DNA of 40,542 nucleotides from Candidatus Heimdallarchaeota archaeon (lineage in GTDB: Archaea; Asgardarchaeota; Wukongarchaeia; Wukongarchaeales; JBHIFL01), in the NCBI GenBank assembly GCA_046761065.1, contig JBHIFL010000039.1, positions 1 to 40,542 on the forward strand. Reading direction: 5' to 3'. Below, one piece after another: positions 6,750 to 26,423 of the stretch; within the stretch, counting starts at the first letter, position 1, and every line of letters starts with the position of its first letter. The notes beneath the pieces were generated by a model. The model did not search any database, was not told the origin of the DNA, and was given only the letters and a program-made list of their open reading frames with translations. Both the position numbers and the translations under genes were made by a program.

Positions 6750-8108
6750 TTACCAAACCATCGAATATTTTGCAAGCTTTTCATCAGCTACGTTTCCCAT
6801 TTCAACATCCTCGATGGCTTTTTCCAATCGGACAAGGCCTATTTCTGCTTCGTCTTGAGTAATGATAAGTGGAGGAGTAATTTCAATGACATTTGCATGA
6901 ATTCCCATCACAATTGTTGTTAATCCAAGTTCCCAAGCCCTATAACAAATTTTTGCCGCCGCTGCGGCCGCGGGTTCTTTTGTGTCTCTATTCTTCACTA
7001 ATTCTATGCCAATAATGAGTCCTTTGCCTCGGACATCCCCAATTATAACGTGTTCCTCTTTCATTTCTTCGAGCCGTTGCAAGATATAGATTCCTTGTTG
7101 CTTTGCGTTCTCAATTAATTTTTCCTCTTGAATTACTGCTAGAGTAGCAAGACCTGCTGCACAGGAAACAGGGTGGCCTCCCACTGTAAAAACATGAGCT
7201 CCCGTGACCGCATCCAAAACTGGTTTACGAGCCACAACCGCACTCAAGGGCATTCCTGATGCTATCGATTTTCCCAATACCACAATGGCTGGATCCACTT
7301 TCTCGTGTTCAATCGCGAACATTTTCCCCGTTCTGCCAAAACCATGTTTTACTTCATCTACTGCAAAGAGGATATCATGTTGTCTGCAAAGTTCCTCAAG
7401 GTTTGCCATATATCCCTCCGGAGGAACAATTTCCCCTCCATCAGACTGGATTGGTTCGACTAATAGACATGAGGTATCTTCTGGGGGACATATTGTTGTG
7501 AATACCTGGTCTTCTATATACTCTACACATTGCATTCCACAGCTGGGATGTTCAAGACCGAAGGGACAGCGATAGCAATACGCATAAGGGACTTTAATTA
7601 TATTTGGGAGCCCTATCACCATCTGGAGTGCTGTTAGACCGGATAGGGAATATGCACCCATGGTTTGCCCATAATAACCTCCCATGAATGAAATTATCCG
7701 CTGCCGTTTTGTAGCTAAAGTAACTGTCTTGTAAACACAGTCATTCGCATCAGATCCTGAAAGTCCAAACCATACTTTCTTCTCGAATTGACCTGGTGTG
7801 AGTTCAATTAACTTTTCTGCTAGGCTCACAGCAGCAGGATGAGAGTGAAGGACAAAGGCATTGTGTGTCACCTTTTCAACTTGCTCCTTGATGGCTTGCA
7901 AAATTCTCGGGTGGCTATAACCAGTTCCTGCTACAGCTCCTCCCGCACAAAAGTCGATGTATTCATTTCCATCAATATCTCTTAGAATTACGCCTTTAGC
8001 TTTTTCCACGATAAGTGGATAGAATCTTACCTTCGCGGTGACTCCAATCGCATTTCGATCACGCTCTAGAAACTCCCGGGCTTTCGGGCCAGGCACCTCT
8101 TTTTTCAT
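6750..8108 (-). CDS. Class-III (fold type I) PLP enzyme; 4-aminobutyrate aminotransferase-like, probably an amino-acid racemase/epimerase
   Basis: DIDGNEYIDF, FGLSGSDAND, EPIQSDGG, DEVKHGFGRTG, GKSIASGMPLS (PLP Lys), GDVRGKGL; GGAGG RBS. Confidence 0.88.
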   Translation of the reverse strand: MKKEVPGPKAREFLERDRNAIGVTAKVRFYPLIVEKAKGVILRDIDGNEYIDFCAGGAVAGTGYSHPRILQAIKEQVEKVTHNAFVLHSHPAAVSLAEKLIELTPGQFEKKVWFGLSGSDANDCVYKTVTLATKRQRIISFMGGYYGQTMGAYSLSGLTALQMVIGLPNIIKVPYAYCYRCPFGLEHPSCGMQCVEYIEDQVFTTICPPEDTSCLLVEPIQSDGGEIVPPEGYMANLEELCRQHDILFAVDEVKHGFGRTGKMFAIEHEKVDPAIVVLGKSIASGMPLSAVVARKPVLDAVTGAHVFTVGGHPVSCAAGLATLAVIQEEKLIENAKQQGIYILQRLEEMKEEHVIIGDVRGKGLIIGIELVKNRDTKEPAAAAAAKICYRAWELGLTTIVMGIHANVIEITPPLIITQDEAEIGLVRLEKAIEDVEMGNVADEKLAKYSMVW

Positions 8109-8149: not shown

Positions 8150-8860
8150 TTATTTCGAATCCCGCTTTCTCTTTACTCGGTTTCGACCTTGTGGCATTTC
8201 CACATAAACTGTAAACGTGTCCGAAATGAGACCAGGTTCTTTTATTGTTTTAATTCCTTTATAATCATTGTAGAAAAGGTCGAATAGTATTTTTGAGGGA
8301 TCTTTAATTCTTTTTTTTCGTAATTCTCTCGGAATCATATCTAAATAATATTGTACAACCTTCTTCATCCGCACATCAGTTCGAGTACGTCTGAGATGCT
8401 GTTTTGCAGCAATTCTAACCTTAAATTTAATATGTCCCCGTAAAACTATATATATGGCTAGCAAGAGACCGATAAATGTCATGGTTGTCGGGTTAAGTAC
8501 TATGGATGCTAATGGTCTCAAAAGAATAGGAATACCTCCTGTCATAAATAATGTCATGAAAATAGCCAACGAAGCTCCATATACTATGCAAATCGTTATA
8601 ATAATTTCATTGACCCTTATCTTTAATGCAAGTCCACCCGGCGCCGATTTTATAATTGATAATGTCTTATTAATCACATTTTGGCCATATTTCAGATTGC
8701 TTCTACTATCCTTAACATTCTTAGTTCGTTCTTCTATATTTCTTGGGGTATGAAAATGCCCATCACGGACACTATCAAAATAACTAACCAACGAAAGAAG
8801 GTTTTCTATTTCATTATCTTTTAAGATAGGATTTTCCTTTCTCTTTCTGAATAAGAACAC
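8150..8860 (-). CDS. Hypothetical basic membrane protein (2 predicted TM helices)
   Basis: 236-aa ORF between permease 2 and the PLP enzyme, same strand; two hydrophobic stretches flanked by K/R-rich domains. Confidence 0.7.
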   Translation of the reverse strand: MFLFRKRKENPILKDNEIENLLSLVSYFDSVRDGHFHTPRNIEERTKNVKDSRSNLKYGQNVINKTLSIIKSAPGGLALKIRVNEIIITICIVYGASLAIFMTLFMTGGIPILLRPLASIVLNPTTMTFIGLLLAIYIVLRGHIKFKVRIAAKQHLRRTRTDVRMKKVVQYYLDMIPRELRKKRIKDPSKILFDLFYNDYKGIKTIKEPGLISDTFTVYVEMPQGRNRVKRKRDSK

Positions 8861-9023: not shown

Positions 9024-10661
9024 TTATGCAGGTGGAATTTCCCGCCACAATGCTGCTACATCAATGCCTTTGCTCTTATTATAAAACCAATAAATTATGT
9101 AAATCGCTGTACCTATGGTAAACCATACGACCTGGAAGATTATCCCTATCCAATCGCCTGCCATCGAAACAATTGTTGCAAAAAGCATGAATGTCATCAT
9201 TGCTGCGCTGATAAGTCCGATGATTGTTGATAGTGGAACTTTTAGGAATTTCCATGTATAACTCCGCTCGAATACCTCAGGACGGTTCAATGGAAGCAGC
9301 ATGGCAGCCCATGACAAAAAGAGGTATCTGAAGATGGCTCCTGGTAGAGTATTTACTAGAGTCTGATACTTTGCATAGACGTGTGAATAGGCAAAGAACA
9401 ATGAAATCGCGCAAACAAAAATCACACCCCAGTGCGGTGTGTGGTATTTATCGTTTACTTCAGCAAAGAATGATGGTGCGAAGCGATCGAAGGCCCATGC
9501 AACTTGTACTCGCGTCAGGATGATGATATAGACTATAGGAACGACATACCATCCAAAACTTGGTCCTATCAGCATAATCAGTGCTAGGAACGAATTAGTG
9601 CTTGCAAAAGGTCCTCCTGTGAAGACTTGCATCGATGGAAGAACCGCGGGTAGTTGTTGCGGAGTAGCCGAGAGTTCAAAACCGTACAATACGTATGAGG
9701 CTTTTGAGATCCAGACGCCGTAAGCTTTGAAACAGGCAAAATTGAAGATAGCCATAAATATTGTCATGAGAACAAAAGAAATAAGTGCTCCGAGTGCAAA
9801 AGTTTTCTTGGGGGTCTTAATTTCACCTGCCGCTACATTCGCAACTTCATAACCCCAGACCGCAAATCCTGCAGGGACTATAGCTAAGGCTGTTTGACTT
9901 CCTACCGTTCCACCTGGCCAGCCCCAGTTATTTGTACTACCTGCTGCATCACTTACATAACTAGCCCAGCCACTATTATCTGCAATGGTTTCAACTTCTT
10001 GCCACGCACCAGCTCCAAATGAACTATTCCACATGCTCATTGCCCGGTCGACTCCACCTGCGGCGATGTAGAGAATCCCTAGAACGGAGAGCACCATTGA
10101 TACTATATATATGCCGAATGCGACTGTGATCACAGGGCCAGTGTATCGAATACCTAAGATGCCAAGAATCGCGTAGATTATTACAAAGATTACTACGATA
10201 GCTAATAATTTAACGGGATCTACACCAACTAGTGTTTCACCGATGCTCATCAAGCGGTCACTGCCTCTCGCCATTCCTAGAACGGAAAAAGCATTTCCTG
10301 TCAAGATACTACCATACATGGCAGCCCCTGAGATCCAAGGAACAATAGCCATCCAAAGACCGACACTTGATAAATAGCCAATATATGGTGAGACAACACG
10401 TGAAATTGCTACATAATCACTTGATGTTCTTGGAAAAGCTGCCACGAGAAACATTGCACAGAACATTGACCACCCCCAAATGAGAGGTGCAATCAAATAT
10501 GTCAATGGGACATTGGCGCCAGGGTACTCAACCAACGCAAAGAATGGTAAGAAGTGCGCTGCAAGATACGTAAATGTGAAACACATAGCAGCCACTGACC
10601 ATGTTCCAATACCTCGAACTAGTCCGGTAGCTTTCCTCACAAATAGAACTTCTTCACTCAT
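9024..10661 (-). CDS. APC-family amino acid permease (paralogue 2)
   Basis: LFVRKATGLVRG, FPRTSSDYVAISR, AGEIKTPKK, RVQVAWAFDRFAP..VNDKYHTPH, C-terminal EIPPA; ~12 TM segments. Confidence 0.9.
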   Translation of the reverse strand: MSEEVLFVRKATGLVRGIGTWSVAAMCFTFTYLAAHFLPFFALVEYPGANVPLTYLIAPLIWGWSMFCAMFLVAAFPRTSSDYVAISRVVSPYIGYLSSVGLWMAIVPWISGAAMYGSILTGNAFSVLGMARGSDRLMSIGETLVGVDPVKLLAIVVIFVIIYAILGILGIRYTGPVITVAFGIYIVSMVLSVLGILYIAAGGVDRAMSMWNSSFGAGAWQEVETIADNSGWASYVSDAAGSTNNWGWPGGTVGSQTALAIVPAGFAVWGYEVANVAAGEIKTPKKTFALGALISFVLMTIFMAIFNFACFKAYGVWISKASYVLYGFELSATPQQLPAVLPSMQVFTGGPFASTNSFLALIMLIGPSFGWYVVPIVYIIILTRVQVAWAFDRFAPSFFAEVNDKYHTPHWGVIFVCAISLFFAYSHVYAKYQTLVNTLPGAIFRYLFLSWAAMLLPLNRPEVFERSYTWKFLKVPLSTIIGLISAAMMTFMLFATIVSMAGDWIGIIFQVVWFTIGTAIYIIYWFYNKSKGIDVAALWREIPPA

Positions 10662-11013: not shown

Positions 11014-11970
11014 CTAGCCCGAAATAAACCACCATTTTTCAAGTTTGTCCTTGCTAATTTCAAAGATAAATCCTTTAAGTATTCCTTCGCCGTATTCTGA
11101 TCCCGGATTCACTGCAAATGTGTCTCCTATTTTTTCATATCCAGAAGACTCATGAATATGGCCATGCAGCCCTAAAAACGGATTATATCTTTTTAAAAAG
11201 TTAAGAACTGCCTTGCTTCCAACATTTTCCATTTCTAATGCCCCCATCTTAATGACAGGCTTCATATCCTTGTCAAGTTTTGGAGCCGCATCTAGTGCTG
11301 TTAAATACGGAGGAGGATGGAAATTGCAGATTAGCTGATTTGGATCAACCGTTGTAAGTTCCAATTGCCTTTCTAGTTTTTCCATAAGTTCTTCCTCAGA
11401 ACACTCACGAGGACTATCCCACGGTGTTGGATTGACATAATCCATGCTTATCATCTCATAATCGAAGCATAAATTGATCGCTTTTCCTAAAGGATAGATA
11501 ACAGTTTCAGATTGCTCTATTAGAGGATCAATTTCGAAAATATCGTCATTACCTGGCATCACAATTGCTTGGACATCCCTTGAGACCTTTTCTGCAAGTA
11601 GTTTGATCCACCTTTTAATCCCCTTTATCATCTCTTGGTTGAACAGTGCATCAACCTTCTTAGGATCTTCCTGTAGCTCTGCAACCTCCTCAGGGGTAGT
11701 GACATAGGGATAGTAGCCGCTAAATCTGATTTTTTCTTTTATTTTAGGTACTTCAGTCTCATTTTTTGCAACCATTTTCTGACCGAATACAGAGCATGTA
11801 TATCTTCCATTAGGTTGTCTTATAATTGGTACGATCATTTTACCCGTAAGATCTCCGCTAAGGATTATAATATTGGCTTTGTATACATCAGGGATGGCAA
11901 GCCATTTTCTCCAAACTTGATCACTACCATGAACATCGCATGAAAACAAAATTCTTTTAATCGTTGCCAT
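11014..11970 (-). CDS. Calcineurin-like metallophosphoesterase (Icc-related)
   Basis: All five metal-binding motifs: DVHG, GDLTG, PGNDD, FHPPP, HGHIHES, plus NPGSEY. Confidence 0.9.
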   Translation of the reverse strand: MATIKRILFSCDVHGSDQVWRKWLAIPDVYKANIIILSGDLTGKMIVPIIRQPNGRYTCSVFGQKMVAKNETEVPKIKEKIRFSGYYPYVTTPEEVAELQEDPKKVDALFNQEMIKGIKRWIKLLAEKVSRDVQAIVMPGNDDIFEIDPLIEQSETVIYPLGKAINLCFDYEMISMDYVNPTPWDSPRECSEEELMEKLERQLELTTVDPNQLICNFHPPPYLTALDAAPKLDKDMKPVIKMGALEMENVGSKAVLNFLKRYNPFLGLHGHIHESSGYEKIGDTFAVNPGSEYGEGILKGFIFEISKDKLEKWWFISG

Positions 11971-11987
11971 TTCGAATCAGATGCAAG

Positions 11988-12013
11988 CAAGAGGAATTAA
12001 TTTAAATCTCTTG
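11988..12013. promoter_or_regulatory. Inverted repeat enclosing a TATA-like box in the 90-bp divergent promoter
   Basis: CAAGAG-gaattaatttaaat-CTCTTG, ~20-40 bp upstream of the phosphoesterase ATG. Confidence 0.4.
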
Positions 12014-12060
12014 TGTTTGATTTCTCTATTTAACTATCTGTAACCCAATTTAGGGTAAGG

Positions 12061-12843
12061 TTGATTAAAGTGTCGGATGAATCTATTATAAATGAAGCCA
12101 TGATCATAAGCGACAAAACACAAAAGGCAGGGTTGACCCTGAAAATTCTAGGAGCGGGTGCTATCCGGATTCACTGCTCCAATTTTGCATCACTCCATAA
12201 GGCAATGAAACGAACACTAACTGACATCGATTTTGTAGCACCTAAAAAGCAAAAGAAAGATGTATTAAAATTTATGGAGACCCTCGGCTATGGAATGGAT
12301 CGGCATATGCGTTATGTTATGACGATTTCAGAACGATATATTCTAACAAAACCTGGGTGGGGTGTTCATGTTGATATTTTCTTAGATAAATTAGATATGT
12401 GTCATCTCATTGATTTACGTTCCCGAATGCACTTGGATCACCCTACTATTCCTTTAGCGGATTTATTGTTGGAAAAAACTCAGATTGTCCAAATAAATGA
12501 AAAAGATATAAAAGATGTAATAGTGCTTCTAAGGGAGCACAATATAGGGGCTGGAGAAGTGGAAACAATCAATGCTCAATATATCGCTGACCTATTGAGC
12601 AAAGATTGGGGGTTTTACTACACAGTAACTACTAATCTGAAAAAGATAGAAGAATTTCTTATAAAGTACGACGTACTGACCGAAGATGATGTCTTGGATG
12701 TGAAAACAAAAATCCAAACCTTGCAGGACAAGATTGAACAGAAACCGAAGAGCCGCCGCTGGAAAATGCGTGCAAAGGTAGGATCTAAAAAGAAATGGTA
12801 TAAAGATGTGGAGGAAGTCTACGAACGCGAAGAACTCCACTAA
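12061..12843 (+). CDS. Uncharacterised Pol-beta-superfamily nucleotidyltransferase-like protein
   Basis: hhGAGAh..H...TDIDF motif plus a third acidic residue in VHVDIF; LLLEKTQIVQINEKDIKD helical C-domain; start TTG 12061 or GTG 12070. Confidence 0.75.
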   Translation: MIKVSDESIINEAMIISDKTQKAGLTLKILGAGAIRIHCSNFASLHKAMKRTLTDIDFVAPKKQKKDVLKFMETLGYGMDRHMRYVMTISERYILTKPGWGVHVDIFLDKLDMCHLIDLRSRMHLDHPTIPLADLLLEKTQIVQINEKDIKDVIVLLREHNIGAGEVETINAQYIADLLSKDWGFYYTVTTNLKKIEEFLIKYDVLTEDDVLDVKTKIQTLQDKIEQKPKSRRWKMRAKVGSKKKWYKDVEEVYEREELH

Positions 12844-14444: not shown

Positions 14445-16358
14445 ATGCGATATACTTCGTATAAAGAAGCATATGATATGTCTCTTAAGAACCCAGAAGA
14501 ATTTTGGCGAAAAGAAGCCGAAAATCTACATTGGTATAAGAAATGGGGTAAGGTTTTAGATGATTCCAACTATCCTTTCTTCCACTGGTTTGTTGGTGGC
14601 AAGACCAACCTCTGTTATAACGCCATTGATCGTCATGCTTTAGGTGAGAAAAGAGGAACAGCCGCAATTATCTGGGAAAGTCCCGAAACAAGACAATCAA
14701 GAATCTATACTTATTATCAACTTTATAAAGAAGTTAACAAGTTTGCTGGGGTGCTAAAGAACCTTGGTGTCAAGAAAGGGGATCGAATCATTATTTACAT
14801 GCCCATGGTCCCTGAATCGGTAATTGCAATGCTTGCATGTGTTCGCATTGGAGCTATTCATTCGGTTGTTTTTGCTGGGTTTAGCCGCGATGCCCTAGCT
14901 GATCGCATTAATGATACCAACCCAAAACTCCTGCTTACTTGCGATGCAGGAAGCCGAGGTGGAAAGGTTGTCAAATTAAAAGGCATTGTTGACGCTGCTC
15001 TAGAAAAAGCCACTGTAAAGGTTGACTATGTAATAGTTAAGAATCGAAACCTTGATCCCGACTTTCCAAGAACCGAGGGTCGCGACCTCGATTGGATGGA
15101 ACTTCTTGAAGCTAAGGGGATGAACTATGTTGTCCCTGAAGTCTTAGATAGTACAGATCCATCATATATTCTTTACACCTCTGGTACAACGGGTAAGCCA
15201 AAGGGGGTCTTACGAGACACTGGGGGTTATATGGTTGCGCTTTCCACCTCCATGTACCAGATTTATGACTGTCAAGCAGACCGAGATGTTTTCTTCTCTA
15301 CTAGCGATATTGGATGGGTTGTTGGGCATTCATACATCGTTTATGCCCCTTTCCTTTTAGGAATTCCTTCTATTCTTTACGAAGGTACTCCAGTCTATCC
15401 TGATCCAGGAATTTGGTGGCGAATAATTGAAAAATATGGCATAACCGTTGTTTTCTCAGCACCCACAGCATTACGTATCCTCAAAAAGTTTCCGGAAAAA
15501 TGGATAAAAGAGCGAGATCTTTCATCGCTGCGTTATTTCTTCCTTGCCGGAGAACCCCTTGATACCCCCACCTATCATTGGGCTACCAAGACTCTTGGAA
15601 CAACGGTCATTGACCATTACTGGCAAACTGAGAGTGGATGGCCTATGTTGTCAAATATGCCTGGAATTGAATTTCTCCCAATAAAGCCTGGGTCACCAAC
15701 TAAGCCCGTTGTTGGATATGACCTCCTGATTGTTGATAATCGGGGTGAAGAACTTCCAAGTAATCAAAAGGGTATTCTTGTTGTTCGACCACCTCTACCT
15801 CCAGGAAATTTAATGACTATTTATGGTGATGATAAGCGTTACAAGCAGGCGTATTGGGAAGTATTTCTGAACAAGAAACTCTATCACACCGGCGACTATG
15901 CGATAAAAGATGAACATGGATATTTTTGGGTTCTGGGTCGATCTGACGAAGTCATAAAGATCGCCGGTCATCGACTGGGCACCCGTGAAATCGAAGAGGC
16001 CGTCTCCTCCCATCCGGCAGTAGCTGAAACATCTTGTATCGGAGTGGAAGATGAGATAAAGGGAACAGTTGTTATTGCTTTTGTTGTCTTAAGAGAGAGA
16101 TATGATCCTTCAGAGGAGCTGAAGAAGGAAATTATCCAAGTTGTGCGTGACACAGTTGGTCCAATCGCTGCTCCAAAAGCCGTTGAAATAGTTAAAATGC
16201 TTCCTAAAACCCGTAGCGGAAAGATCATGCGGCGTATTTTGAAAAGGGTTTACGAGGGCAAACGATTAGGTGACTTAAGCACGATCGAAGATGGAACTAG
16301 CATTGAGGAAGTCTCAACTGCTATCAAACTAATGAAAGACGAACTTGATCGAGATTAA
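14445..16358 (+). CDS. prpE: Propionate/acetate--CoA ligase (PrpE-type)
   Basis: YTSGTTGKPKGVLRDTGGY, DIGWVVGHSYIVYAP, FLAGEPLD, DHYWQTESGWP, GHRLGTREIEE, LPKTRSGK; these variants are PrpE-like rather than AcsA-like. Confidence 0.85.
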   Translation: MRYTSYKEAYDMSLKNPEEFWRKEAENLHWYKKWGKVLDDSNYPFFHWFVGGKTNLCYNAIDRHALGEKRGTAAIIWESPETRQSRIYTYYQLYKEVNKFAGVLKNLGVKKGDRIIIYMPMVPESVIAMLACVRIGAIHSVVFAGFSRDALADRINDTNPKLLLTCDAGSRGGKVVKLKGIVDAALEKATVKVDYVIVKNRNLDPDFPRTEGRDLDWMELLEAKGMNYVVPEVLDSTDPSYILYTSGTTGKPKGVLRDTGGYMVALSTSMYQIYDCQADRDVFFSTSDIGWVVGHSYIVYAPFLLGIPSILYEGTPVYPDPGIWWRIIEKYGITVVFSAPTALRILKKFPEKWIKERDLSSLRYFFLAGEPLDTPTYHWATKTLGTTVIDHYWQTESGWPMLSNMPGIEFLPIKPGSPTKPVVGYDLLIVDNRGEELPSNQKGILVVRPPLPPGNLMTIYGDDKRYKQAYWEVFLNKKLYHTGDYAIKDEHGYFWVLGRSDEVIKIAGHRLGTREIEEAVSSHPAVAETSCIGVEDEIKGTVVIAFVVLRERYDPSEELKKEIIQVVRDTVGPIAAPKAVEIVKMLPKTRSGKIMRRILKRVYEGKRLGDLSTIEDGTSIEEVSTAIKLMKDELDRD

Positions 16359-16506
16359 GAGTTAACTTTGGTCTCATCTGCTTCATCAACTTTTTATTAG
16401 GTTTTTATCGGATCAATAACTGATTACGTTGTGTTGATCTAGAATAAAGCCGAAAATGTTATAATTGCTCTGATTCAAACGATGAAATACCATTGGAGGT
16501 TTCTGA

Positions 16507-16821
16507 ATGAAAGCAAAACGTGGAGATTGGGTCCAAATTCATAAAATTATACTTCAACCAGGTGAACGATCTCCCCGATCCCCCGAGGACACACAGCAAG
16601 TCCCTTATGAGATGCGAGTAAAGGGGTTTCTTTTAGACAATGAAGCTAAAATTGGTCAAGAAGTTTCAATTCGAACTCTTATTGGAAGAACTTTCTCTGG
16701 AAAGCTGATCGCCATCAATCCAACTTACCCTCATAATTTTGGGGAACCCGTTCCAGAGCTTTTGTCAATTGGCATTGAGCTTCGAGAACTCTTAACAAAG
16801 GAAGAAGGTGGAATAAAATGA
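16507..16821 (+). CDS. ortA: 2-amino-4-ketopentanoate thiolase alpha subunit
   Basis: GDWVQIH..IL.PGER.P..PEDT..VPYEM.VKGFL and PTYPHNFGEPVPEL; ATGA overlap with ortB. Confidence 0.9.
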   Translation: MKAKRGDWVQIHKIILQPGERSPRSPEDTQQVPYEMRVKGFLLDNEAKIGQEVSIRTLIGRTFSGKLIAINPTYPHNFGEPVPELLSIGIELRELLTKEEGGIK

Positions 16822-18242
16822 CTATGAAAGGCAGTTTCACAGATATTATGGAGCGACGAGGCGAGATCCTGAAACGTACAACTGGAATTGATTATGAAAA
16901 ACTAACGCAAGGAAAAATCGCATTTGATTATGAGGGATTGTTTGCAAGTACTGGGTATAGTCTAGAAAATGTCCGGGCCATTCAAAGGAACCTGCGTGCG
17001 GGGAATACTCCTCTTCTGGAACTTAAGAATATAACACGGCTCGTGCGAAAAATCACCCAAAAAGGTAAAGGGGCCCGAATATTTGTAAAAGACGAAGCTG
17101 CAAACCCCTCAGGAAGTTTCAAGTATCGCAGAGCTTCGATGCCGGTTTATCATGCGAAAAAGACAGGTTATGAAGGTGTAGCTGTAGCAACTAGTGGAAA
17201 CTATGGCGCGGCAGTAGCTTCTGTAGCCAACGTGGTCGGAGTAAAATGCATTGTCATCCAAGAAGTGTTTGATAGCCGAGGTATTGGCCAGCCAGAAATT
17301 ATTGAAAAGGGCAGAAAATGCGAAGCTTATGGTACAGAAGTGCTGCAAATGACTGTTGGCCCCGAATTACAATATATGCTTCTGCGCGTTCTTGATGAAA
17401 CTGGATTTTTCAGTGCGGGGTTATACACACCCTTTGCGGTGTTGGGAATCGAAACGCTTGGGTATGAGATCGGAACTGCGATACTAGAACTAGAAGGTCG
17501 CCCTCCGGATGCGGTGGTAATTACCCACGCTGGAGGGGGCAATATTACAGGAACTGCCCGGGGTCTTCAAAAGGCTGGCTGCAAGGACACCCAAATAATT
17601 GCTGCCAGTGTGGATCTCTCTGGTTTGCATATGGCGAGTGACAAAGATTTCAACCGCAAGAGCTTCACCACGGGTCACACCGGATTTGGAGTGCCCACGG
17701 TCACATGGCACGATCGGATGGGGGATGTACCTAGGAATGCGTGTAGACCGCTTCGTTACATAGACAGATACGTCACGGTCACCCAAGGTGAAGTGTTTTA
17801 CGTTACAGAGATGTTGGCTCAGCTTGAAGGTCTCGAACGCGGTCCAGCTGGTAACACATCCTTAGCCGCGGCCTTAGCGCTTGCCCGAGAAATGGATGAA
17901 GATCAAATCTTAGTCATCAATGAAACTGAATACACGGGTGCGGGAAAGCATCCATCGTCGCAATTAACTTTCGCAAGACAAAATAATGTTGAAATTCGAA
18001 GAGGTGATCCAGTTGAAAATGTTCCAGGGAAAGTTATCGTCATTCCCAACCATCCAAGTCAAATTAGAGCTAAAGACCTTGATCTTCTACATTTCCAGAA
18101 AGCAAATATACGAAATTCTGTTCAAAATGCAGGAACCAACATTGTTTCTGAGATAGACGTACATTTTATGGCCGAAGACATTCAAGCTGATCGGAGGTTT
18201 GTCCGACAAGTCCTTTCGGATCTTGATGTACAAGTCAATTAA
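16818..18242 (+). CDS. ortB: 2-amino-4-ketopentanoate thiolase beta subunit (PLP fold type II)
   Basis: KDEAANPSGSFKYRRA, ATSGNYGAAVAS, GQPEIIEK, FNRKSFTTGHTGFG, ERGPAGNTSLAAA, ETEYTGAGKH. Confidence 0.92.
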   Translation: MTMKGSFTDIMERRGEILKRTTGIDYEKLTQGKIAFDYEGLFASTGYSLENVRAIQRNLRAGNTPLLELKNITRLVRKITQKGKGARIFVKDEAANPSGSFKYRRASMPVYHAKKTGYEGVAVATSGNYGAAVASVANVVGVKCIVIQEVFDSRGIGQPEIIEKGRKCEAYGTEVLQMTVGPELQYMLLRVLDETGFFSAGLYTPFAVLGIETLGYEIGTAILELEGRPPDAVVITHAGGGNITGTARGLQKAGCKDTQIIAASVDLSGLHMASDKDFNRKSFTTGHTGFGVPTVTWHDRMGDVPRNACRPLRYIDRYVTVTQGEVFYVTEMLAQLEGLERGPAGNTSLAAALALAREMDEDQILVINETEYTGAGKHPSSQLTFARQNNVEIRRGDPVENVPGKVIVIPNHPSQIRAKDLDLLHFQKANIRNSVQNAGTNIVSEIDVHFMAEDIQADRRFVRQVLSDLDVQVN

Positions 18243-24965: not shown

Positions 24966-26423
24966 TCAGAGATCATGAGGTAGATATGAGACCTCTATTC
25001 GTTTTGCCGCATCCCGCATGATATGTTTGAGTTGATTGTCACAATCTTCGGGTAATGGTTCGTGGACATGATCATCTAGGATCTGAGTGACGCGTGTTTG
25101 GGCCCGATCAATTATACTTAACTCACCATCTTGTCTCCATTTTTGCAGATCTTTTCGATCGATTACCTCCGATGGGATAAATTGATCGTGCCGGAACCAC
25201 TTTAACGTATGAAATACCGTTAGAAAACTGCCATGGGGACCAACCTCCCGGAAAAGATCTACCGCTAGTGCATCCTCATTCACTTCGATACCCTTGACCA
25301 AACGTTTGGCCATCCCACAGATCTCATTGTCAATCACTAATTTTTCTAAACTCTGACTATTCTCAAAATTCAGCATTCCGGGACCGGAAACTACATTGAT
25401 ACCTGCAAGTGTTGCAAGGATTAGTCCCAGCCCTGTTTCAAGACCGGATTGGGTATCAATTCGTTTGGCATCGGAGAGACCCATGTACGCGTGGGTGGGA
25501 AATCCTAACATCTTTCCAATGGATGCGTATGCGCAGTCAATCATCATCGTTTCAATGGCACCCACTCGTGTTGTGCATTCTCTTTGGTCGAATACTGCTG
25601 GACCCCCTCCCCATATGACGGGAGCGCCGGCCTTTGTGAGTTGACTTAGAATAACTCCTGATAACGTTTCTGCAGTGTGTTGTACGAGCGCACCTGCGAG
25701 ACTGGCCGGTCCCGTAGCCCCGATGAGGGGCGCAGAGACGTACTCGACAGGAATATCAAAGTGCGCACAATCTATAAGGTGTTGAGCGGTCTGTTCACTC
25801 CACATCAGTGGAGGGGAGGGGCAGACATCAAACACCGCCAATGGCTTTTTGGAGAGGTCTTCCCCATAAGCCTCCCGGACCGCTACTAACATGTCTTTCA
25901 TGTCTTTCACCCCATGGGTGGTAAATGCCCCTGTGTCAACCGGCTTTTTGGCATACTTCAGGACGAGATAGAGTCGGTATCTATCTGCCAAGCGCTCATC
26001 AATATCCGAAACAACCATCGACGTGCTTTGATAATGCATATTCGGGAGGTTGTCTGTCAATCGAATGAATTTTATGAAATCATCAGTTACAGGTTCTCGA
26101 ATCGTCCCATCTGGATCTAAAATGGTCATTGCCGCTGAACCAGGAATGTAATGCACATTATCTCCCTTGATCGTCAAGGTAAGTTCCCCATGACGATCAT
26201 AGAGCTTTATCGCATTAGGTGCTTTCCGAACACACTCTTTTACAATTTCTTCTGAAAAAACTCCAATTTGCGAATTGGGTTGGAATTCAATACCCCCATC
26301 TTTCAAGATCTTCAGTGCATTCTCATTTTTAATTAGAATTCCTGTTTCACTAAGTACTTGAAGAGCACTCTCGTATATTTGCTCTTTTTCTTCTTTTGAG
26401 ATGATTCCAAAGCTTGGTTGCAT
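24966..26423 (-). CDS. Trimethylamine:corrinoid methyltransferase (MttB) superfamily protein, non-pyrrolysine type
   Basis: ALQVLSETG, PSPPLMW, GATGPASLAGALVQH.AE.L.G, SDAKRIDTQSGLE, GPGML, EKLVIDNEI, VGPHGSFL; no in-frame TAG. Confidence 0.9.
   Translation of the reverse strand: MQPSFGIISKEEKEQIYESALQVLSETGILIKNENALKILKDGGIEFQPNSQIGVFSEEIVKECVRKAPNAIKLYDRHGELTLTIKGDNVHYIPGSAAMTILDPDGTIREPVTDDFIKFIRLTDNLPNMHYQSTSMVVSDIDERLADRYRLYLVLKYAKKPVDTGAFTTHGVKDMKDMLVAVREAYGEDLSKKPLAVFDVCPSPPLMWSEQTAQHLIDCAHFDIPVEYVSAPLIGATGPASLAGALVQHTAETLSGVILSQLTKAGAPVIWGGGPAVFDQRECTTRVGAIETMMIDCAYASIGKMLGFPTHAYMGLSDAKRIDTQSGLETGLGLILATLAGINVVSGPGMLNFENSQSLEKLVIDNEICGMAKRLVKGIEVNEDALAVDLFREVGPHGSFLTVFHTLKWFRHDQFIPSEVIDRKDLQKWRQDGELSIIDRAQTRVTQILDDHVHEPLPEDCDNQLKHIMRDAAKRIEVSYLPHDL

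Follow-up and report, generated by a model that had tools for sequence, protein, structure and literature searches.

What might a calcineurin-type metallophosphoesterase (MPE) and a Pol-beta-fold nucleotidyltransferase (NT), encoded head to head in an archaeal genome, accomplish together? The question is raised by a contig of 40,542 nucleotides (JBHIFL010000039.1, analyzed whole and called here the window) from Candidatus Heimdallarchaeota archaeon, whose metagenome-assembled genome (MAG; 4.4 Mb, completeness 91%, contamination 8%) has its nearest relatives among genomes named Bathyarchaeia or Thermoproteota. An earlier note, written from the letters of the sequence, had taken the two genes for a functional unit. 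Our results bear this out: MPE and NT show conserved synteny across many archaea and bacteria, they have diversified together, and certain organisms encode the two as a single fused protein. We show that they belong, with an APC-type permease and, in the clade of the window, a protein with two transmembrane helices (the 2-TM protein), to a conserved and undescribed module. This module is real, widespread, and uncharacterized, and its conserved arrangement spans Asgard and Thermoproteota archaea as well as Actinomycetota.

A conserved module of two enzymes and a permease

We searched 41 related genomes with MPE and, separately, with NT. MPE was present in 20 of them (E < 1e-60), and all 20 also carried NT (18 strongly, 2 only in a contig-cut or divergent form of 381 amino acids [aa]); the remaining 21 had neither. 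A wider survey, with one genome per prokaryotic species, yielded 439 NT loci, from which we examined the best 80, all in public named genomes, counting MPE and the permease if they lay within 7 kb. By this measure MPE and the permease were each found at 64 of the 80 loci, and many loci without them are truncated contigs. Among 25 loci from the relatives, NT, MPE, and the permease were present at 23, 23, and 17, respectively. The hosts of the best 80 loci are Bathyarchaeia, Thorarchaeota, Baldrarchaeota, Actinomycetota, Acidobacteriota, and Chloroflexota, and the genes are carried by 111 of the 301 sampled genomes of the phylum. In the related genomes MPE and NT lie side by side in nearly every case, facing apart, facing each other, or reading in the same direction with either gene first; this adjacency recurs at ~100 loci, in every orientation, and is far beyond chance.

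The MAG itself encodes seven NTs, seven MPEs, and six permeases of a single subfamily. The seven NT/MPE pairs are distributed over contigs C39 (the window), C46, C55, C57 (three pairs), and C64, and clustering of the flanking open reading frames (ORFs) revealed that five of the seven adjoin a paralog of the 545-aa permease. The MAG has only one other APC match, which is weak and falls outside the module subfamily. Two pairs, at the end of C57 and the start of C64, lie at contig ends without a permease. We noticed that the second permease of the window, situated 195 bp from the contig start beside ETF and acyl-CoA dehydrogenase genes, may belong to one of these two pairs, split from it by an assembly break; we found no contig-end overlap joining it to either pair, and the link is unproven.

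The three components have also diversified together. Over 65 complete triads, Mantel correlations were 0.74 for NT-MPE, 0.78 for NT-permease, and 0.88 for MPE-permease, values reached in 0 of 2,000 permutations, although they overstate independence because kin share history. Nearest neighbors agreed in ~60% of the same triads versus 1.6% expected. Identity among the paralogs of the MAG is 37-53%, versus 52-56% to their best orthologs; the paralogs predate the split between families, so much of the co-diversification signal lies at the level of the module. The two enzymes are more uniform than their transporters: mean identity is 0.43 for NT and 0.44 for MPE, both with many invariant noncatalytic polar residues, and 0.25 for the permease.

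Natural fusions of NT and MPE, ~580 aa in length, form eight database clusters. In the fusion P0247, residues 1-252 are 46% identical to the NT of the window and residues 268-575 are 44% identical to its MPE. Such fusions are classical Rosetta-stone evidence that the two proteins work together. We found nothing relevant in the literature on this gene combination, on PF14907, PF14582, TT1561, or aq_1956, and, as the earlier note had supposed, no characterized pathway with the MPE plus NT architecture was found there.

Features of the module proteins

The Pol-beta motifs that the earlier note had read in the NT are all present (G31-A-G-A, D55-I-D57, and V104-D105). In an alignment of 40 homologs, G31, D55, D57, and D105 are invariant (40/40), as are R51, H115, K139, Q141, D149, D152, D182, N192, K230, W234, and W246. 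A late motif, K148-D149-x-x-D152, completes a layout of RxTDxD plus KDxxD. NT ends in a conserved basic/aromatic tail (PKSxxWKxRAKxGxKKKWY), with a charge of +4 set against -4 for the body, onto which it packs with high confidence in the AlphaFold model. In this model (predicted local distance difference test [pLDDT] 92.6) the catalytic residues sit on a Pol-beta fold, a placement on which the earlier note had staked its reading: G31 follows strand 28-30, D55 and D57 lie on strand 55-60, and D105 lies on strand 103-108. NT is a member of the Pol-beta nucleotidyltransferase superfamily, and clustering of its family at 50% identity gives 2,990 clusters.

The closest structures to the NT model are ANT(2'')-Ia (Z 11.9, 154 residues aligned), MenT1 (11.6), a fungal NTase-like protein (11.1), and LnuA (10.1), followed by JHP933 (9.6), MenT3 (9.2), and MenT4 (8.9), which places the modeled fold between ANT(2'')/LnuA and MenT/AbiEii. 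Every row returned by Foldseek is an NTase. In sequence, the nearest family is NTP_transf_5 (PF14907), which 26 of the 40 homologs match at E<=0.1 (best 2e-7). The NT of the window misses its threshold (20.5 bits versus 31.2) and is a distant sister of that family, not a member. Nor does it belong to PF08843 (AbiEii/MenT, DUF1814) or to the MNT-HEPN group. A profile search against the sequences of the PDB gave spurious de-novo-TIM or IL-4 rows only, and the ESM Atlas returned only unnamed “nucleotidyltransferase family” clusters.

The true start of NT is probably the GTG at 12070 rather than the TTG at 12061. An identical database protein (P0005, 257 aa) and a relative of 89% identity both start at this GTG, and a GGTAAGG-like purine stretch lies upstream of it. 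Longer forms of NT occur elsewhere. At locus L082 (2859-4169, + strand), a 436-aa ORF has an AhpC/TSA peroxiredoxin domain at its N terminus, followed by a full NT domain, and the database protein P0325, of the same length, has its NT at residues 192-436; this form may be a redox-sensing variant. Locus L029 holds a second NT (9170-10525, - strand) of 451 aa, in which an N-terminal alpha/beta domain of ~110 aa is followed by a long proline-rich linker. Pfam searches of these forms and of the 381-aa forms gave nothing informative except AhpC.

The full MPE motif set listed in the earlier note, with GNDD in the place of GNH[D/E], can likewise be read from the sequence (D12-x-H14, G39-D40, G140-N-D-D143, H218, and H269-G-H271-x-H273). 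These metal and phosphate motifs are invariant in 34 of 34 homologs, every one of which has Asp for the His of GNH[D/E], and the family has two further motifs, NPTPW..PRE and NPGSEY. The insertion between motifs II and III that the earlier note pointed out is there as well: of ~100 residues in this interval, ~80 (roughly residues 44-128) are unmatched in the closest solved MPEs. The PF00149 match is a marginal pass (23.0 bits versus a cut-off of 21.5). For Metallophos_3 (PF14582) the score is 23.6 bits against a cut-off of 28.2, and many homologs bear a precomputed PF14582 match.

The AlphaFold (AF2) model of MPE (pLDDT 94.3) has the beta-sandwich fold of metallophosphoesterases. Its nearest structures are aq_1956 (2yvt; Z 24.0, 235 residues aligned) and TT1561 (Z 21.8), with Mre11 and MPPED2 at ~19 (MPPED2 19.2), GpdQ, and Rv0805 (16.3) following in a range of Z 16-19. 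Foldseek gave an E value of 2.5e-11, and in a search of the family profile against the sequences of the PDB, aq_1956 was the sole match. MPE is a member of the calcineurin-like metallophosphoesterase superfamily and forms a distinct branch beside the uncharacterized aq_1956 and TT1561 proteins, with its own insertion and GNDD. It has at least 7,000 relatives among the matches listed, and an ortholog occurs in Caldisericum exile. Because their catalytic residues are invariant and their models are confident, MPE and NT both look catalytically active.

The permease aligns over its full length with TIGR00909 (E 2e-8, a score that falls far short of the model cut-off), and an alignment of 79 members shows conservation of the APC motifs PRSGGxY, GE, and R..D..P. 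It has no match in Pfam at E<0.1, and because the AA_permease models of Pfam miss it, we assign it on sequence grounds to a divergent subfamily of the APC superfamily. The 2-TM protein, with conserved residues D29, R32, and K57 and a C-terminal DY.GI..K.P motif, was found at 34 loci, which form one coherent clade including the copy in the window. We considered it as a universal small membrane partner of the module and rejected this idea, given that it is clade-specific and occurs in 33 of 76 complete triads.

The window and the variable neighbors of the module

The features of the window that concern the module are collected in Table 1. The genes named in the earlier note, an APC permease, a class-III pyridoxal phosphate (PLP) enzyme with racemase-family matches, an M28 peptidase, and a CoA ligase, were correctly recognized, and genes for a DUF6092 protein and a nitroreductase are also present. 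Both ORFs of the divergent pair were found as the earlier note drew them, 90 bp apart, or 99 bp apart if NT starts at GTG. Their spacer contains two A/T-rich TATA-like elements, TTAATTTAAAT near 12000 and TATTTAACTA near 12030, and presumably acts as a bidirectional archaeal promoter, judging from its sequence. An Rfam scan of the window gave no match.

Table 1. Module genes and selected neighbors in the window
Feature	Position	Strand	Description and evidence
MPE (calcineurin-type metallophosphoesterase)	11014-11970	-	318 aa; ORF, PF00149, motifs
NT (Pol-beta-fold nucleotidyltransferase)	12061-12843	+	260 aa from TTG; motifs, fold
Divergent MPE-NT spacer	11971-12060	.	90 bp, sequence read directly
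APC-superfamily permease, divergent subfamily	9024-10661	-	545 aa, ~12 TM helices; TIGR00909, adjacency, co-diversification
2-TM membrane protein, no Pfam family	8150-8860	-	236 aa; clade-specific fourth module member
Class-III PLP enzyme (aminotransferase/racemase-like)	6750-8108	-	PF00202 E 8e-100
Second permease, same APC subfamily, contig edge	196-1791	-	AA_permease_2 E 4e-23; subfamily HMM E 5e-131
PrpE/Acs-type CoA ligase, then OrtA/OrtB	14445-18242	+	OrtA/OrtB = 2-amino-4-ketopentanoate thiolase
Non-Pyl MttB-superfamily methyltransferase	24966-26423	-	PF06253 E 3e-84

The class-III PLP enzyme probably shares a transcription unit with the module. Its best-scoring NCBIfam models are those of aspartate and acetylornithine aminotransferases, and models of Ala/Ser and Leu/Met racemases match too, all below their cut-offs. 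The OrtA and OrtB genes stand in the window without the remaining genes of the oxidative ornithine pathway.

We counted the neighbors of the module at ~105 loci, that is, the 25 loci from relatives and the 80 NT loci. In a concatenated tree, the trio of permease, MPE, and NT stays constant while the flanking catabolic genes sort by clade. Class-III PLP enzymes occur at 21 loci, non-Pyl MttB-family proteins at 17, corrinoid proteins and aldehyde:ferredoxin oxidoreductases (AOR) at 13 each, luciferase-like oxidoreductases at 10, S-Me-THD/DUF917 proteins at 9, and BKACE at 7. The DUF917 loci also contain Asp/Glu/hydantoin racemases, and short-chain dehydrogenases/reductases and iron-containing alcohol dehydrogenases are further recurrent neighbors. 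Copies in Actinomycetota (L086, L091, and L106) have one or two glutamine-synthetase (GS)-like genes and a PucR-type regulator, with AllG in one; this set is typical of gamma-glutamylation routes for the use of polyamines, ethanolamine, or monoamines. The copy in the window falls within the 2-TM clade, beside copies flanked by AOR or by sets of MttB, corrinoid, BKACE, and PLP genes. In sister loci, the trio has pairs of MttB genes with a corrinoid protein and BKACE as its immediate neighbors, a hint that some module permeases carry quaternary or methylated amines. The MttB gene of the window lies 12 kb from the module.

These counts modify two expectations of the earlier note. It had tied the pair to an amino-acid catabolic locus, to which the pair is not specific: the catabolic genes vary, whereas the permease is the partner that stays constant. 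It had also proposed looking for recurrence of four of the neighbors, among which the APC permease is constant and the class-III PLP enzyme is frequent, not universal, whereas DUF6092 and the nitroreductase are not general (nitroreductase at 4 loci in the first set of 25 and at 1 in the next 80). The theme that unites the loci is the import and breakdown of amino acids and organic amines.

Candidate mechanisms and known systems

How could a private pair of enzymes serve a permease? We tentatively favor a switch that works by reversible nucleotidylylation and is coupled to each permease, a reading to which we give slightly less than an even chance. NT would spend a nucleoside triphosphate to place a nucleoside monophosphate (NMP) on a hydroxyl of a module-specific target, which could be the cognate permease, the 2-TM protein, or a bound factor. 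MPE would hydrolyze the NMP phosphodiester, reversing the action of NT. Each permease would thus have a writer and an eraser of its own that gate the uptake of an organic amine or amino acid, and the imported compound would be consumed by the products of the neighboring catabolic genes, which differ between copies.

The main rival to the switch is direct nucleotidylylation of the cargo, in which NT would modify an imported amine or amino-acid derivative and MPE would cleave the adduct, so that the compound is trapped, activated, or detoxified in a kind of group translocation. The best fold matches of NT, ANT(2'')-Ia and LnuA, are indeed small-molecule O-nucleotidyltransferases; the invariant acids of its C-terminal domain (D126, D149, D152, and D182) could bind ammonium groups, the only feature that all APC substrates have in common; seven co-diversified pairs would fit seven substrate specificities; and the setting is in every case the breakdown of organic nitrogen compounds. 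However, the substrates implied by the neighbors (betaines by MttB, amino acids by PLP enzymes, and hydantoin-like compounds by DUF917) have no common hydroxyl, and NT and MPE are far better conserved than the permeases, which suggests a common acceptor beside diversified transport specificity. The pair appears indifferent to downstream chemistry, in that the trio is constant while the catabolic genes change, and for this reason we prefer the switch. Cost argues in the same direction. Modification of the cargo would consume two phosphoanhydride bonds per molecule, and conversion of adenosine triphosphate to adenosine monophosphate for each molecule imported would ruin a fermenter that feeds on those molecules; moreover, making an adduct and then hydrolyzing it is futile unless MPE cuts the other side of the phosphate. 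We regard cargo modification as rather unlikely. A further reason to favor the switch is that known enzymes pairing an NT fold with a phosphohydrolase of opposing activity are regulators: GlnD (NT plus HD) and Rel/SpoT are bifunctional, with the NT fold fused to the phosphohydrolase.

The likeness to Rel/SpoT also bears on a local second-messenger circuit, in which NT would make a signaling (oligo)nucleotide, MPE would degrade it, and the permease would be sensor or regulated effector. Enzymes with Pol-beta-like folds produce cyclic oligonucleotides and alarmones, the NT fold lists include CdnE and Rel/SpoT at low rank, MPE resembles the cyclic-nucleotide phosphodiesterases MPPED2 and Rv0805, and the NT-MPE fusions parallel Rel/SpoT. 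Nevertheless, a diffusible messenger would leave seven private synthase/hydrolase pairs in one cell unexplained. In PADLOC, NT matches no CD-NTase or other defense or signaling model, its closest folds are not CD-NTases (CdnE is a weak match of low rank and low TM-score), and the permease has no nucleotide-binding domain recognizable by Pfam or NCBIfam, all of which makes such a circuit improbable. Slightly less probable still is an RNA-directed pair, with a MenT-like NT adding nucleotides to the 3' ends of tRNA and MPE trimming or repairing them, so that translation is tied to amino-acid supply. MenT1, MenT3, and MenT4 are among the best folds, the RxTDxD plus KDxxD layout and the conserved basic, aromatic tail would fit, and the MPE fold is near Mre11/SbcD/Dbr1. 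Yet the model has the tail packed against the body, the body is acidic, the linkage is to a permease and not to translation genes, and any MPE gives Mre11-type matches. The least probable reading by our estimate, and one we rejected, is a toxin-antitoxin or anti-phage pair, in which an AbiEii/MenT-type toxin would be opposed by an enzymatic antitoxin. Several copies occur in one genome, NT has a fold like those of MenT and JHP933, and 2 of its 40 homologs touch PF08843 at E ~1e-3. As for kinship with AbiEii/MNT toxins, which the earlier note had reckoned with, the fold is as close to the MenT/AbiEii type as to ANT(2'')/LnuA, but there is neither sequence membership nor an antitoxin. The absence of an adjacent HEPN/AbiE-type partner remarked on in the earlier note extends further: we saw no AbiEi or MenA-type neighbor in the window or at ~100 loci, and no HEPN family among the neighbors scanned. 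PADLOC reported nothing for NT and a generic C-terminal match only for MPE, the link to a 540-aa permease inside catabolic operons is constant, and the copies are old vertical paralogs, not mobile islands.

Several observations weigh against the switch that we favor. Its acceptor is still only a list of candidates, and we sought a family-specific conserved Ser, Thr, or Tyr on the permease as a site of NMPylation and found generic APC motifs only. The 2-TM protein is present in under half of the complete triads. The solved structures nearest to NT in fold belong to enzymes that act on small molecules (ANT(2''), LnuA) or on tRNA (MenT) rather than on proteins. A pair of dedicated enzymes for every permease would be an expensive form of regulation. 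Finally, the shared history of kin, as said above, inflates the Mantel figures.

In sediments, Bathyarchaeia and their kin rank with the most abundant organisms and live on detrital amino acids and methylated amines. Because nearly all APC-type permeases of the MAG are in the module (six versus one generic), the role of NT and MPE would be central to the acquisition of organic nitrogen and carbon by the cell. A dedicated enzyme pair per transporter is not known to have a characterized precedent. If the role of the pair were worked out, a function would be assigned to ~3,000 NT clusters and at least 7,000 MPE relatives now called “hypothetical” or “Icc-related phosphoesterase”, and a new regulatory or energizing principle for secondary transporters might emerge. 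That the module represents a new way of controlling or driving uptake, with a private NT/phosphodiesterase pair per permease that NMPylates and de-NMPylates the transport machinery or else nucleotidylylates the cargo in group translocation, seems to us possible, with the balance leaning somewhat against it.

Each enzyme has known relatives from which it departs. aq_1956 (2YVT) and TT1561 (1UF3), of Pfam Metallophos_3, are the closest solved structures to MPE and have the C-terminal GHxH...NPG region in common with it, but these structural-genomics proteins of unknown function are 225-260 aa long and lack the ~80-aa insertion, and aq_1956 has GKND where the MPE family has its invariant GNDD. 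In structure, the N-terminal 160-180 residues of NT are matched best by ANT(2'')-Ia (AadB) and LnuA, which have the same catalytic triad. Unlike them, NT carries an additional helical domain at its C-terminal end together with a basic tail, is always partnered by MPE and the permease, and stands in no resistance-gene context; identity is 14-18%, and there is no Pfam membership (PF10706 is touched by 1 of the 40 homologs, E 0.05). The MenT/AbiEii toxins and NTP_transf_5 resemble NT in their two-domain layout with RxTDxD and KDxxD and in fold (Z 9-11.6). NT differs from them in Pfam scores below the curated cut-offs, in having no antitoxin, and in being nonmobile and outside defense, and the module, in contrast to MenT/AbiEii systems, is chromosomal, old, and permease-linked.

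For the module as a whole, GlnD/PII/AmtB appears to be the closest functional analog, by likeness of arrangement and not by membership: we found no HD or ACT domain, and GS-like genes flank the actinobacterial copies only. As in GlnD/PII (GlnK)/AmtB, and in GlnE acting on glutamine synthetase, a Pol-beta NT is paired, and sometimes fused, with an opposing phosphohydrolase, and as in GlnD/PII/AmtB, the output would control the uptake or assimilation of nitrogen compounds via a membrane transporter. The module departs from GlnD and GlnE in its eraser, a calcineurin-type MPE instead of an HD domain or a second NT domain, and from GlnD in its loci, which contain no ACT domains and no PII protein, and in its plan, which sets one private pair beside each permease in place of one global sensor.

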